Of a DNA stretch of 60,364 nucleotides, positions 9,392 through 15,437 are shown piece by piece. This stretch comes from an uncultured Sulfolobales archaeon. Its GTDB lineage: Archaea > Thermoproteota > Thermoprotei_A > Sulfolobales > NBVN01. Numbering within the stretch: position 1 is the stretch's first letter; every line of letters starts with the position of its first letter. Where the stretch lies: positions 1 through 60,364 of the forward strand of contig CALKCU010000002.1 in the NCBI GenBank assembly GCA_938083005.1. The letters run 5' to 3'. The translations under genes were made by a program, and so were the position numbers. Under the pieces are notes generated by a model. It worked only from the letters and a program-made list of their open reading frames with translations, was not told the DNA's origin and made no database searches.

Positions 9392-11138
9392 TAGACCCCG
9401 AGTTGAGACGGCGACCCTGCGCGAGATGCTAGGACTTGTCCTGGCGTATAGGAGGGACGTGATCGTAGTCGCCACAGCCGTGGTCGCCGGCAGTATAGCC
9501 CTGCTCGCATCCCCCTACATACTCGGGCTCGTGATAGACGAGGGCATAGTCGGAGGGAGGCTAGACCTGCTCCCGAAGCTCGCCTCCCTCTACATCGCTA
9601 CGGTGCTGCTGCAGTGGGCAGCCATGGTGGTGAGGACTATCAGGATAGAGACCGTGGGTCAGAGAGTTCTGAAGAACCTCCGCGAGCTCCTCTTCAGCAA
9701 ATACGTCAAGGCTACCCTGGACTTCCACAAGAGATACCAGGTGGGAGACCTCGTATCCAGGCTGGTCAACGACACGTCGGTGGTCAACGAGTCCATGGTC
9801 ACGGGGCTGCTCAACGTCCTCGGGGATTTAGTGTCCATGGCGGGCTCCCTGGCGATGATGGCCTACCTCAGCCCCCAGCTGACCCTCGTCTCCCTGGCTA
9901 CGGTCCCCCTCATGGTGTTCGTAGCGAAGAGGCTGGGAGCCAGGCTCAGGAGGACCTGGAGGGAGGTCAGGGAGAGCGTGTCTAGGATGACCTCGGTGGT
10001 TGAGGAGAACGTGTCGGGCATAGAGGTCGTGAAGTCGTTTGGCCTCGAGGGGGACGTCCTCTCTAGGTTCGACAAGGTCTCGCGCGAGGTGTCTAGGACC
10101 TCGGTGAAGGCCTCGATCTTGGCCGGGCTCTTCTTCCCCCTCATGAACGTATCGATGTCTCTCTCCCTGGCAGTGGTCGTGGCGTACGGCGGATACCTAT
10201 GCCTGAGAGGGCTCCTCAGCGTGGGGGTATTGGTGGCCTTCACTCAGTACGTCAGCAGACTCATGGCTCCGGTAAACGAGCTTGTGTTCCTATACGACGC
10301 TCTCCAGTCTGCTCTGGCCTCTCTGGACAGGGTATTTGAAATGGCAAGATCCGAGGACGTTGAGAGCGACGAGGGTATAGAGCTCGAGGACGCCCGGGGC
10401 CATGTAGCGTTCGACCACGTCTGGTTCGAGTACGAGCCCGGGATGCCGGTCCTCAAAGACCTGACGTTCAGCGTGAGAGCCGGGGAAGTGGTGGCCGTGG
10501 TGGGGCACACGGGTGCGGGTAAAACGACCATGGCCAACCTCCTGGTGAAGTTCTACGAGCCGACCAGGGGCAGGGTGCTGATAGACGGAATCGACTCGAG
10601 GAATATCAAGAGGAGCAGCCTCAGAAGGTTCGTGAGCTACATACCCCAGGAGACGTATCTGTTTCAGGGGACGGTCATAGACAACATCAGGGTCGTGAAG
10701 CCTGCCGCTAGCGACGAAGAGGTGATCCGCATCTGCGAGAAGCTGGGGATACACAAGTTCATAAGCAAGCTGCCCAGCGGCTACCAGACCGACGTCGGTG
10801 AGGTAGGCAAGAGACTGTCCCTGGGCGAGAAGCAGCTAGTAGCTATAGCGAGGGCCATGCTGAAGGACTCCAGGATAGTGATATTTGACGAAGCGCTCTC
10901 GGGGGTCGACGCCGAGACTGAAAGAGTAATTAAGAGCGCTCTCAGAGAGCTCCTCAGGGGCAGGACGGGGATAATCATAGCCCACAGGCTCTCCCTAGCC
11001 AGGGACTGCGACAGGATAATAGTTCTGTCCGACGGCAGGGTTGTCGAGTCAGGGTCTTTCGAGGAGCTCATGGAGAGGCGGGGTGCGTTCTACGAGATGT
11101 ACAGGGTCCAGGTAGAGGCCGGAGAGAGCGCCAGCTGA
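9378..11138 (+). CDS. Heterodimeric ABC exporter subunit 2 (TMD+NBD; degenerate signature)
   Basis: GHTGAGKTT, LSLGEKQ, IFDEA, AHRL; overlaps subunit 1; TM288-like. Confidence 0.9.
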   Translation: MRRASRPRVETATLREMLGLVLAYRRDVIVVATAVVAGSIALLASPYILGLVIDEGIVGGRLDLLPKLASLYIATVLLQWAAMVVRTIRIETVGQRVLKNLRELLFSKYVKATLDFHKRYQVGDLVSRLVNDTSVVNESMVTGLLNVLGDLVSMAGSLAMMAYLSPQLTLVSLATVPLMVFVAKRLGARLRRTWREVRESVSRMTSVVEENVSGIEVVKSFGLEGDVLSRFDKVSREVSRTSVKASILAGLFFPLMNVSMSLSLAVVVAYGGYLCLRGLLSVGVLVAFTQYVSRLMAPVNELVFLYDALQSALASLDRVFEMARSEDVESDEGIELEDARGHVAFDHVWFEYEPGMPVLKDLTFSVRAGEVVAVVGHTGAGKTTMANLLVKFYEPTRGRVLIDGIDSRNIKRSSLRRFVSYIPQETYLFQGTVIDNIRVVKPAASDEEVIRICEKLGIHKFISKLPSGYQTDVGEVGKRLSLGEKQLVAIARAMLKDSRIVIFDEALSGVDAETERVIKSALRELLRGRTGIIIAHRLSLARDCDRIIVLSDGRVVESGSFEELMERRGAFYEMYRVQVEAGESAS

Positions 11139-11271
11139 GCGCGGGTTTTAGGTCCGATACCTACGCGACGAGAGTTCTTACGCCTCGGTACAGCGACCGG
11201 TCTTGTTAGTGGGAGGAGCCGCGAGGTAAGGATAGCCTTTATTCCGTGCGCACTAGGTCTGCGGGCAGCTC

Positions 11272-12513
11272 GTGGTAATAGAGGTCAGAGGTCCGCACCT
11301 CTACGTTGGAGGTCTGAGAGCCGAGGATATAGCCGACAGGTTCGGAACCCCGCTGTTTGCGTACGATAGAGAGACCGTGGAGGAGAACTACGGCAAGCTC
11401 GTCGGGAGCTTTACCTACGAGAACGTGGAGATCCTCTACTCCTGTAAGGCGAACAACAACCCCGGCATACTGAGTGCTCTCAGGGAGCTGGGAGCCGGCC
11501 TCGACGCCTCCTCGCCGTGGGAGGTCCTCCTCGGTGTTAGGCTTGGGTTCCCGAGGGAGAGGATACTGTTCACGGGCGTTGGGGTCGCGGACGAGGAGAT
11601 GAGGTTCGTCAGGGGGGAGCTCGGGGTCCTAGTCAACGTAGATTCCCTACCCCAGCTCAGGAGGTACGGGAGGATGTTCCCGGGGACGGAGGTATCGATA
11701 AGGATAAACCCCGGCTTCGGAGCGGGCTATCACGAGTTCACCACGACCGGAGGCCTCACGAAGTTCGGGATAGACGTGAGCTCTGCGAGTAGAGCCCTTG
11801 AGATAGCCGGGGAGCACGGGCTGAGGGTGGTGGGACTCCACGCGCACATAGGGTCCGGGATCTTCTCGGTAGAACCTTATGCTAGGGTGGCTAGGGTGCT
11901 GTTGGAGCTAGCGAGGAAGATCCCTCACGTAGAGTTCATAGACGTGGGAGGAGGTATGGGAGTTCCGTACAGACCCGGAGAGGGGGCGTTCGACCACATA
12001 GGCTTCGGTCGCACTATGTCGAAGATCATGGAGGAGTACTCAAGAACTCTCGGAAACGTCAAGCTGAGGTTGGAGCCCGGGAGGTTCATAGTCGGAAACG
12101 CGGGGGTCCTCCTGACCAGGGTGGTCGACGTCAAGGAGGTAGAGGTCGGGGGGATCAGGAAGGTCTTCGCCGTGGTCGACTCGAGCGTCAACCACATCCC
12201 GAGGGCAGCGATGATGGGTACGTACTACGAGGTAGTCCACGCGTCGAGAGCCGGCGCGCCGGCCGAGGTGGAGGTCGACGTGGTCGGGAACCTCTGAGTA
12301 GCCGGCGACGTGATGGCCAGGTCCAGGAAGCTGCCGCGGCTCGAGGAGGGGGACTTTCTAGCGTTCCTGAACGTGGGAGCGTACGCCTACAGCACGAACA
12401 TGAACTACAACATGAGGCCCAGGCCGGCCGAGGTACTCGTTCACGGAAGCGATGTGGGGCTCACGAGGAGGAGGGAGACCTTTGCGGACCTCGTCTCGAC
12501 GATGGTGTTCTGA
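11272..12513 (+). CDS. lysA: Diaminopimelate decarboxylase (LysA)-family enzyme with one in-frame TGA at 12295-12297 (recoded, or recent pseudogene)
   Basis: YSCKAN (PLP Lys), HAHIGS, LEPGR; ORFs 11272..12297 and 12310..12513 are in the same frame: VVGNL*VAGDVMARSR...VGAY...NYNMRPRPAEV...RRET. Confidence 0.85.
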
Positions 12514-12575
12514 GCTCCCGGCTTGCGAACAGTTTTAGGTGCGTCCGCGCCCAACCCGGGGGTGAGCGAACTCCG

Positions 12576-13607
12576 ATGCTCGTTCCAGAGCTCGGTAGAC
12601 GCGCGCTGATCCTAGCAATAGGGGGTGGAGGGGACGTCGCCTCTGCCGCAGTCTTGGCGGCTACGTATAGGAGAGCGGGCCTTGGCGCGCTCCTGGCTTC
12701 CATAGCGTGGGAGAGGTACGTCAACGACCCGGTCCCGGGACCGATAAGGCTGAGCGAGATCGCTAACTGCGTAGAGCTCGGCGAGGGCTACGCGATCGTC
12801 TCGGGCCCCTCCTACGCCCTCAGGGGCGGTAGGAAGGTGGTCTTCCAGGCCGCGAGGGTGGCCGAGATCCTCGGCGAGAACCTCTACATAGTGGACCTCT
12901 ACGGCGGGGTCGCCGGGTACGCGAAGGCCCTCAAGGAGATCGCGGAGCGGGAGGGCGTAGACGTGGTGATCGGGGTAGACGTGGGCGGGGACAGCCTCGC
13001 CGTGGGGTACGAGGAGGGGCTCTGGAGCCCTCTGGCCGACTGGATCGGCGTCGCGTCCCTAGCGAAGCTGGGCGGGATCCTTGCGGTCCACTCCCCGGGT
13101 AGCGACGGTGAGCTCAGCCAGGATTACGTGTTGAGAAGAGTGGACGAGGTGGCTCTGAGGGGAGGGCTCATCTGGGGAGCGTTTATGACTAGGGAGGACG
13201 CGGAGCTCCTGGAGCGGATGCTGGAGCGCGTGGAGAGCGAGGCCTCCAGGGTGCCGTTGCTGGCGTACAGGGGGCTTAGGGGTAGGTACAGCATGAGAAT
13301 GGGCTCTAGGGCCGTCGACGTGACGCTCTTTAGCACTGCGACCTTCTTCCTCGACGCTCGCGTGGTCGCCGAGGGTGTCGAGCCCCTCGAGGTGCTCGCG
13401 TCGACGAAAAGCCTCGAGGAGGCTAGGCGGTGCCTGAACGTCATGGGGATCTACACGGAACTCGACCTAGAGGAGGATCTAGCAAGGCTCGGTGTAGACC
13501 CGGCGCAGCTGAGCGGGGAGCTGCTCGTCGAAGTAAGGAGGAGGGGTATTGAGAGGCTGAGGGAGGGAGCGCACCAAAAATACGGTTCTTGTGAAAAGGC
13601 TAGCTAG
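12576..13607 (+). CDS. DUF1152 family protein
   Basis: IGGGGDV, GVDVGGDSLA.G.EEGL.SPLAD, G.DGEL. Confidence 0.8.
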   Translation: MLVPELGRRALILAIGGGGDVASAAVLAATYRRAGLGALLASIAWERYVNDPVPGPIRLSEIANCVELGEGYAIVSGPSYALRGGRKVVFQAARVAEILGENLYIVDLYGGVAGYAKALKEIAEREGVDVVIGVDVGGDSLAVGYEEGLWSPLADWIGVASLAKLGGILAVHSPGSDGELSQDYVLRRVDEVALRGGLIWGAFMTREDAELLERMLERVESEASRVPLLAYRGLRGRYSMRMGSRAVDVTLFSTATFFLDARVVAEGVEPLEVLASTKSLEEARRCLNVMGIYTELDLEEDLARLGVDPAQLSGELLVEVRRRGIERLREGAHQKYGSCEKAS

Positions 13608-13902
13608 CTCTTGCTAGGAGTCTTCCCGCCACGACTAAGAGTGACCACATCCCTACTCCCGCTGCCACGAGCAGAGCGCTCAGCTTGAGAGCGTCCAGCG
13701 AGTACTCCACAAATGTTCCCTCCTCTATGTAGGTAAACGCGGAGTCGAGGAGGAACATGAGCGCGGCACCGGCGAATATCAAGGTGAGGGAGCTTAGCTC
13801 GTACTTGTCCGGCTTCCCGCTCCTATAGCCCCTGTACCACAGCGCGGCCGACGCTAACGCGACCGCAAGGAGTACTAGAGGCCACATGCGCTGCCCCGTC
13901 AC
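13600..13902 (-). CDS. Small membrane protein, partner of the upstream gene
   Basis: Three hydrophobic segments, GAALMFLLD motif; GTGA start/stop overlap with the upstream gene. Confidence 0.7.
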   Translation of the reverse strand: MTGQRMWPLVLLAVALASAALWYRGYRSGKPDKYELSSLTLIFAGAALMFLLDSAFTYIEEGTFVEYSLDALKLSALLVAAGVGMWSLLVVAGRLLARAS

Positions 13903-14243
13903 TCACTTAGCGTGGTCGTCACTCTGGTTGCGGGCTTTACCTTCAGCTCGACCTTTCTGGACGCGTACAGTATTGAGAGCCAGAGGCCGGCCGTAGCCAA
14001 CGTCATGGATCCCCCTACTCTTGTCATCTCCAGCAACATCCCGGCGATGCCCGAGGCTCCCGTTAGGAATGGGGGGTAGGGCGCTATCTCTCCGTGTCAG
14101 GCGTGCTCGATCATCAGCAGAGCGGAGCCTCCTAGCAGGAGGCAGGACAACATCCTCAGCTTAAGCTCCTCAGCTTTCCTCCAGATCTTGGGCAGAACCG
14201 AGGTCACTACGCCCACTACCAGGGGCGTGATGAAGCACGCCAT
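13899..14243 (-). pseudogene. Conserved-type small membrane protein (MACF... family) interrupted by an in-frame TGA at codon 49
   Basis: Manual translation: MACFITPLVVGVVTSV...LLMIEHA*HGEIAPYPPFLTG...TTTLSE*; 115 codons; absent from the ORF track. Confidence 0.75.
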
Positions 14244-14378
14244 TCCAGACAACCTCGATGAGTTTTCGAGCACACAATAATAAGCCCTAACGTACGTAAC
14301 AAGATATCGAACCAGCGCGAGTCCGGGGACGACGGAGGACGGCTACATAGCTGTTGAACATGGGAAGAGGCGCGAGGG

Positions 14379-15437
14379 CTAGCTCCCGCTGGAACCCTCC
14401 CACAACCTCTTCGGCACAGCGTAGCTGCGTATCTCCCTGGTCCCGATGGTTATGACAAGGTCTCCGGAAGGCGTCTCGACGCTTAACACTCCCCTTACCC
14501 TCAGCTCCCCGCCCCTGTAGAGGGCATAGGAGTAGAGGGACTCGTAGGTCACGACCCTGGATACTCTGGAGGGCTCTACGTCCACTCTCCGGAGCGATCC
14601 GAGGACCCTCAGGTCGAGGACCCTGCTCACGCGGGCCGCTCCAGGGTAAAACAGAGACTCGCAGCCCCCCGGCTCCACGGCCAGCTCGGCCTCCACGAGA
14701 GCCGTGGGGACCAGAATCCTCTCCCCGTATCTGCCCGGCGCGTCCGACGCGAACATCACATTGACCTCCCTCTTCCTGTCCCGCATGTACAGCCTCTTGT
14801 AGGGAGGAGAGATAGCTCGCAGGACCTCGGGAGGGAGCCTGTAAACCTCAGCCATCCTGACAAGCCTCTCGGCCTCAACCTCCGGTGGCGCTTCTTCGAA
14901 GGAGCCCCTGGCGGACTCCACCACCTCCAAGGCCTCGCGGCATCCGTAGACCACGAGGTCCACGTCCGATACCGATGGGTTGTGGATCCCGACGGCGATG
15001 GACCCGTCTACGCCGACGCTATCCGGATGAACTCCAGAGCAGGCCCTGATCCTCTCGAAAGCCATCGCCGTATCGACCTCTACCGGATCCGCGGGCCTCC
15101 TCAGGATCTCCCACAACCTGTCCCTGGGTCTGTAGACTGCCGTGATATCCTTCAGCCTGACGACGGGCATAGTCACACCGAGCGCGGGGTCGTAGAGCTC
15201 CTCCTGGAGCCCGCTGATGGCCCTCAGAACGCTATCGACGCCATACCTCTTCACCACTCTCTCGTAGCACCTGCCCCCCCGACACCAGGGGGTCGTAGAC
15301 GACGTCGGTAAGTACTTGAGATAGGCGATCACGGCTCCGGGGGGATGAGTGTTGCCAACCACGATGTATATCTTGCCGGTCGAGTCTTCCAGGTGGTCGT
15401 GGTCCAGAAACGGTTCAGCCGGTTTGCTACTAATCAC
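14379..15437 (-). CDS. Predicted archaeal nucleotidyltransferase (pol-beta fold, COG1665-like)
   Basis: VVGN.HP, YLKY, GVDGS.....N..VSDVDLVVYG. Confidence 0.75.
   Translation of the reverse strand: MISSKPAEPFLDHDHLEDSTGKIYIVVGNTHPPGAVIAYLKYLPTSSTTPWCRGGRCYERVVKRYGVDSVLRAISGLQEELYDPALGVTMPVVRLKDITAVYRPRDRLWEILRRPADPVEVDTAMAFERIRACSGVHPDSVGVDGSIAVGIHNPSVSDVDLVVYGCREALEVVESARGSFEEAPPEVEAERLVRMAEVYRLPPEVLRAISPPYKRLYMRDRKREVNVMFASDAPGRYGERILVPTALVEAELAVEPGGCESLFYPGAARVSRVLDLRVLGSLRRVDVEPSRVSRVVTYESLYSYALYRGGELRVRGVLSVETPSGDLVITIGTREIRSYAVPKRLWEGSSGS

Follow-up and report, generated by a model that had tools for sequence, protein, structure and literature searches.

Analysis of a 60,364-nucleotide stretch of DNA from an uncultured Sulfolobales archaeon (the window) revealed a gene for a fold-type III PLP decarboxylase whose reading frame is interrupted by one stop codon, TGA, at the position of the catalytic cysteine. 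This gene, a paralogue of lysA that we refer to as lysA2, occupies positions 11272 to 12513 of the plus strand, comprises 413 codons and is likely a young pseudogene. We attribute the stop to a presumably recent single-base nonsense mutation, TGC to TGA, that turned a duplicate lysA into a pseudogene, and we assign this reading a probability of about 90 %. A recent change of TGY to TGA had also been the preferred reading of the preliminary description of this DNA, and it is supported by the Cys codons found in relatives and by a contig of the public run X1, both described below.

Translation revealed a single internal stop between positions 11272 and 12513, the TGA at 12295-12297 (plus strand; codon 342 of 413), after which 71 open codons lead to a normal terminal stop that is also TGA (12511-12513, plus strand) and lies at the codon where the orthologues terminate with TGA, TAA or TAG. 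The column of codon 342 corresponds to the Cys residue of the GNxCESGD motif of canonical homologues and to Cys314 of the T. maritima DAPDC, the numbering of which was checked against residues R249, R285 and E315 given in PMC8277567. Upstream of the stop, the PLP Schiff-base lysine, Lys59 of the SCKAN motif, is intact in the alignment (11446-11448, plus strand). Downstream, the 71 codons lost by truncation (12298-12510, plus strand) encode Asp346, Tyr371 of the GAY motif, the YN..PRPAEV motif and four strands of the beta domain; their dN/dS to the sister species of 0.16 looks purifying. The letters quoted in the preliminary description for positions 12283 to 12315 match the window exactly, and its observation that the TGA falls precisely on the catalytic Cys of an otherwise intact frame was confirmed by translation and alignment. 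The read-through product scores 354 bits against TIGR01048 (cut-off of 298). In the sequence records looked up, the truncated lysA2 protein of 341 residues is recorded on one contig and the Cys-containing read-through form is absent. It should be noted that a nonsense change falling on a Cys codon is not surprising in itself, since both TGC and TGT are one base away from TGA.

The cysteine column was then compared among relatives, of which 19 of the 61 genomes searched contained a match to lysA2. All six orthologues from the same genus, which share 67 to 79 % identity with lysA2, carry TGC or TGT at the column of codon 342, as do all 16 other LysA rows that have a residue there (the alignment comprises 25 rows, two of which lack a residue at this column). 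The two metagenome loci that matched a pattern allowing any TGN codon both encode Cys. Within the class, the PF00278 C-terminal domain occurs in 48 of 351 genomes, and an internal stop was present in 1 of 55 matches, namely in lysA2 itself. When 185,579 species were searched with a pattern that places UGA in the canonical motif, 16 matches were returned, none of them in a LysA frame; the motif of this pattern fits 62 of 113 canonical homologues, so that about half of such genes were covered. The alternation of UGA and Cys among relatives, which had been proposed as a check for recoding, was thus not seen: Cys codons occupy the position in all six orthologues and no other genome was found with UGA here.

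We further asked if the TGA is a real base. One public run, X1, contains the stretch (0.89 of its words). Runs X2 and X3 yielded no contig for it and no RNA run was listed as containing it, neither of which bears on expression. An X1 contig with a depth of 10.3 spans positions 12150 to 12520 without a break, differs from the window in a single letter (12398) and retains the TGA. Since this contig was assembled separately, the TGA is probably real DNA, and an assembly slip is disfavored. Of the mutation and the assembly error proposed earlier, the former is therefore favored; TGC or TGT in the reads, which had been expected to speak against recoding, was not borne out by the near-identical X1 contig, which has TGA. 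The TGA is known from this one sample, which may be the source of the assembly, and Logan contigs lose rare variants, so that the X1 contig documents a real allele and is not independent proof of its fixation. A second X1 contig (depth of 23) carries TGC and differs at 51 letters; it belongs to the sister species G009, whose flank it has.

Alternatively, the TGA could stem from an error of sequencing or assembly, or the population could be mixed and carry a functional TGC allele beside it. The genome is metagenome derived and of modest depth, rare variants would be dropped from Logan contigs, and several other sites differ between the window and the near-identical X1 contigs (11266, 11643, 11788 and 12398), a pattern which itself points to a mixed population. 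However, the TGA lies on a separately assembled contig whose depth of 10.3 is similar to that of the adjacent near-identical contigs (10.4 to 14.5), and X1 yielded no near-identical contig carrying TGC. We therefore regard an artefact or a mixed allele as very unlikely.

Under a nonsense mutation, a single transversion of TGC to TGA would terminate translation after residue 341, with loss of the catalytic Cys, Asp346, the PLP-binding Tyr371 and the four beta-domain strands, and because of the loss of the Cys, the Tyr and the strands, the 341-residue product is expected to be inactive. Such a loss would likely be tolerated because lysA2 is an accessory duplicate beside a canonical copy with an intact CESGD motif. 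This copy lies on contig C8 (17982-19070) and is cut by the contig end, beyond which about 45 N-terminal residues are located.

The gene itself exhibits no clear decay. Its pairwise dN/dS to G009 is 0.235, which corresponds to the 70th percentile of 688 genes (median of 0.185), and the pairwise values are 0.25 before the stop and 0.16 behind it. At sites that the other six members conserve, lysA2 has 15 private changes, compared with 13 for the G009 orthologue. These data fit a young stop and equally fit read-through, and the latter was weighed in two forms, low-level decoding and selenocysteine insertion. Taken together, read-through of any kind was given only about one chance in twenty.

UGA acts as an ordinary stop in this genome. 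In a codon-model comparison with 1.29 Mb of sister species G009, which covered 958 gene pairs and 244,178 well-supported codons, TGA occupied 1 of 1,959 aligned Cys positions, this being lysA2 itself, and 3 of 2,465 aligned Trp positions. Among the co-terminal gene pairs, 168 of 514 end with TGA here, and TGA interchanges with TAG and TAA between the two species; a genome-wide reassignment of UGA was not indicated by this comparison. Since TGA terminates these pairs and lysA2 is not the only disrupted gene, we conclude that UGA is an ordinary stop and that young pseudogenes exist in this genome. The codon-model scan listed eight stops, three of which lie in credible genes, namely lysA2 and one gene each on contigs C26 and C49. 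The gene on C49 (8560-9891), a GT4 glycosyltransferase pseudogene, is disrupted by a frameshift near its start and by a TGG to TGA change, whereas it is intact in the sister species. The gene on C26 (220-1761, minus strand) belongs to an unknown family, has an internal TAA at approximately codon 436 of 522 and shows a dN/dS of 0.57 to the sister species. The other five listed stops were set aside as lying within short ORFs that resemble shadow frames. A sugar ABC permease gene on C69 (3-846, minus strand) carries an apparent frameshift near the contig end, perhaps an error of assembly. Coding sequence downstream of stops was also sought without a reference; this test, which is weak because its filter excluded lysA2, returned 12 of 369 TGA, 16 of 618 TAG and 3 of 148 TAA codons, mostly in front of in-frame operon neighbors, with no excess of TGA.

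Some active enzyme would be made if a near-cognate tRNA for Cys or Trp, or a context-dependent mechanism of an unknown kind, allowed low-level read-through of the UGA. The lack of detectable decay is compatible with it, and ARAGORN called a tRNA-Cys(GCA) in this genome. Against it, no relative conserves the UGA, UGA serves as an ordinary stop in the genome, including at the end of lysA2 itself, and no stimulatory RNA structure was detected: folding of the sequence behind the stop, of the 3′ gap and of the 5′ gap was no better than that of shuffles (z of 0.40, −1.10 and −0.23). A search of positions 10500 to 14500 against the Rfam families gave no match up to an E value of 10. Stop codon read-through proven in archaea comprises only Sec and Pyl, according to the list in PMC8211752. 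We consider low-level read-through highly improbable.

The preliminary description had also raised selenocysteine, and had suggested searching the genome for the corresponding machinery. Several observations seem to favor this reading, as the stop sits precisely on the catalytic Cys, the frame downstream is unbroken and seemingly under purifying selection, and run X1 shows the TGA to be real. Moreover, the genome is incomplete (1.33 Mb in 70 contigs, 83 % complete). The search yielded none of the components SepSecS, PSTK, SelB, SelD or tRNA-Sec: SepSecS was absent from this 83 % complete assembly, PSTK had no match over the cut-off, the SelD and SelB matches were far below theirs, and the 12 matches to the tRNA-Sec model were all below the cut-off, the best two being tRNA-Ser. 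No UCA anticodon was present among 50 ARAGORN calls. The absence of these genes from this genome alone is weak evidence because the assembly is 83 % complete and even tRNA-Trp, tRNA-Phe and tRNA-Gln were not called. Across the genus, SepSecS was found in none of the 10 genomes, and weak partial matches of up to 37 bits occurred in 6 of 101 relatives elsewhere. Matches to the tRNA-Sec model did not withstand inspection; 5 of 52 family genomes had matches exceeding the cut-off, each of which proved to be a tRNA-Ser(tga) or a tRNA-Leu(taa), and the four within the genus were tRNA-Ser(tga). With a relaxed threshold, ARAGORN produced hundreds of low-quality calls, among them "SeC" calls that were as frequent as other rare anticodons and represent noise.

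According to a review from 2026, Sec use among archaea is confined to Methanococcales, Methanopyrales and Asgard (PMC13188914). In the main text of that review, the word decarboxylase appears once, for a CMD-like redox protein, and diaminopimelate nowhere, and its 11 archaeal selenoprotein families are redox or Se-metabolism proteins, unlike lysA2. In the literature searched, a body without most subscription papers, we found no report of a selenocysteine-containing LysA. With the selenoproteins of these archaea lysA2 does share a UGA aligned to the catalytic Cys of its homologues. In contrast to them, neither recurrence of the UGA, nor, in this 83 % complete genome, tRNA-Sec, SepSecS, PSTK, SelB or SelD, nor, by Rfam search and RNA folding, a SECIS-like signal was found. 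Given further that no other Cys to TGA change occurs among the 1,959 positions and that none of the 16 pattern matches lies in the LysA frame, the reading of this UGA as selenocysteine, which would make the protein the first PLP-dependent selenoenzyme and the first case of Sec use in Thermoproteota, is extremely improbable. The recoding proposed earlier is thus not supported, as relatives have TGC or TGT, lysA2 is the only one of 55 domain matches with a stop and Sec machinery was not found. That this species reads a lone UGA either as Sec, by a system missing from incomplete assemblies, or as Cys, by an undescribed context-dependent mechanism, has a slightly fainter prospect than read-through as a whole; if true, lysA2 would be the first recoded PLP decarboxylase, with the first such recoding in Sulfolobales. 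As the recoding claim fails, the stop itself is of little import, and it provides a worked example showing that UGA at a catalytic Cys, when seen in a single metagenome-derived genome, does not suffice for calling a selenoprotein.

The likely nonsense mutation struck a member of what appears, from sequence comparison, to be a genus-specific, neofunctionalized clade of LysA duplicates represented in seven species. In a quick tree of 48 proteins, the seven orthologues formed one group (SH-aLRT of 100) with a long stem (0.41) within the canonical copies of the genus, and 6 of 10 genus genomes, including this one, carry both the canonical copy and the paralogue. The orthologues are named "diaminopimelate decarboxylase [Sulfolobales archaeon]" in the database. 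The predicted structure of an intact orthologue, P0003, had a pLDDT of 93.6 and TM scores of 0.84 to 0.91 to DAPDC structures. The intact orthologue and the lysA2 read-through product both possess the features of fold-type III PLP decarboxylases, that is, the TIM barrel and beta domain, the PLP lysine, GGG, EPGR and GAY. Against TIGR01048, clade members scored 350 to 354 bits (cut-off of 298), compared with 413 bits for the canonical copy of the sister species.

The substrate site of the clade differs in a defined manner. The two arginines that bind the distal carboxylate are kept, as Arg271 of EPGR (12082-12084, plus strand) aligns to T. maritima Arg249, to which this role is ascribed in PMC8277567, and Arg311 of RAAMM (12202-12216, plus strand) aligns to T. 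maritima Arg285. In the same RAAMM segment, Met315 replaces the Tyr of RPALY, as Met does in 7/7 clade members. The Glu that binds the distal amine (T. maritima Glu315) is replaced by Met or Val, again in all seven: Val343 in lysA2 (12298-12300, plus strand), Val in the sister species and Met in the five other species. The GxxCE segment is kept in 111 of 113 other homologues. The divergence of substrate-site residues pointed out in the preliminary description (E to V, Y to M) is thus real and common to the entire orthologue clade, and both its conservation in seven species and mutagenesis of the same position (PMC8277567) support the suggestion drawn there of a possibly different substrate. 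In that study, the E315M variant of T. maritima DAPDC fell from 675 to 111 mU/mg with DAP and gained activity toward 2-aminopimelate (62 mU/mg) and 2-aminoadipate (13 mU/mg), and the E315L and E315F variants accepted D-norleucine and D-phenylalanine.

Because the amine-binding Glu is replaced while both arginines are kept, and because E315 mutants shift specificity, we predict that the intact orthologues are PLP decarboxylases acting at a D-stereocenter of an amino acid other than DAP, which would possess a distal carboxylate but lack a distal amine. Candidate substrates are D-2-aminoadipate, D-2-aminopimelate and D-glutamate. We consider it somewhat better than an even bet that the intact orthologues constitute a natural D-dicarboxylic amino acid decarboxylase that arose by lysA duplication in a genus apparently feeding on bacterial cell-wall fragments.

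Three known systems resemble the clade. With LysA (TIGR01048; PDB entries 2p3e, 1ko0, 1twi and 2yxx) it has in common the fold, the PLP lysine, HxGSG, GGG, EPGR, GAY and the distal arginines, but it has Val or Met for the Glu, Met for the Tyr of RPALY and YHEFTT for the lid loop HHxY/xxTGG; in this genome only, the Cys codon is moreover a stop. The engineered T. maritima DAPDC E315X variants are altered at the same position (PMC8277567). They are, however, single laboratory mutants, whereas the clade is natural, carries more site changes and is conserved in seven species, and E315V is not listed in the variant table of that paper. The D-ornithine/D-lysine decarboxylase DokD (NF052544) is a natural LysA-like enzyme for another D-amino acid in which the equivalent Cys is important, the C387A variant of DOKDC retaining approximately 1 % of activity (PMC13294871). 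Clade members score 152 to 167 bits against NF052544, below its membership cut-off of 700, and while DokD takes basic amino acids, the clade no longer has the acidic residue responsible for binding a distal amine. Another protein in our set, P0069, is an unrelated LysA-like protein on a long branch that reads GNLVQAGD, without the Cys and the Glu.

Natural D-amino-acid decarboxylases are few, and the paralogue clade is of modest value in this respect. The position altered in it is the site at which engineering was directed toward a thermostable D-2-aminopimelate decarboxylase for making a precursor of nylon-6 (PMC8277567), and the six intact natural variants, which are probably thermostable, are labeled as plain diaminopimelate decarboxylases in databases. 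We found no report of the clade in the literature searched, which was without most subscription papers.

The genomic context is consistent with scavenging of cell walls. The canonical lysA gene adjoins a gene for the exo-N-acetylmuramidase NamZ in four genus genomes, and NamZ is present in 8 of 10 genus genomes versus none of 42 other genomes of the family. DapF and LysX over its cut-off were each found in none of the 10 genus genomes, and MurQ over its cut-off in none of five genomes; DHDPS-family matches occurred in five of five genomes and do not distinguish a DAP pathway from aldolases. This gene content suggests that lysine is won from DAP of scavenged peptidoglycan. It is plausible that the canonical enzyme converts scavenged DAP to lysine; action of the duplicate on another D-amino acid is speculative. 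Three genes of the Asp/Glu-racemase family (C47:21678-22292, C5:1924-2439 and C47:6971-7594) represent a possible source of D-amino acids, and the family occurs in 9 of 10 genus genomes.

In five of the seven species, the paralogue lies beside genes for a ThiN-domain regulator, a CoA transferase, an aldehyde ferredoxin oxidoreductase and an acyl-CoA dehydrogenase. Its other neighbors in those species we take, from their motifs, to be ETF, enoyl-CoA hydratase and hydroxyacyl-CoA dehydrogenase. This set could serve the oxidation of an omega-amino acid product. The cluster of CoA transferase, aldehyde ferredoxin oxidoreductase and acyl-CoA dehydrogenase is, however, not beside the gene here or in the sister species, and the neighbors do not fix the substrate. 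Within the window, a gene for a beta-N-acetylglucosaminidase (PF07555; 4310-5710, minus strand), unusual for an archaeon, is consistent with scavenging of amino sugars. Finally, a DUF1152 gene (12576-13607, plus strand) begins 62 bases behind lysA2, an order that only the sister species shares.
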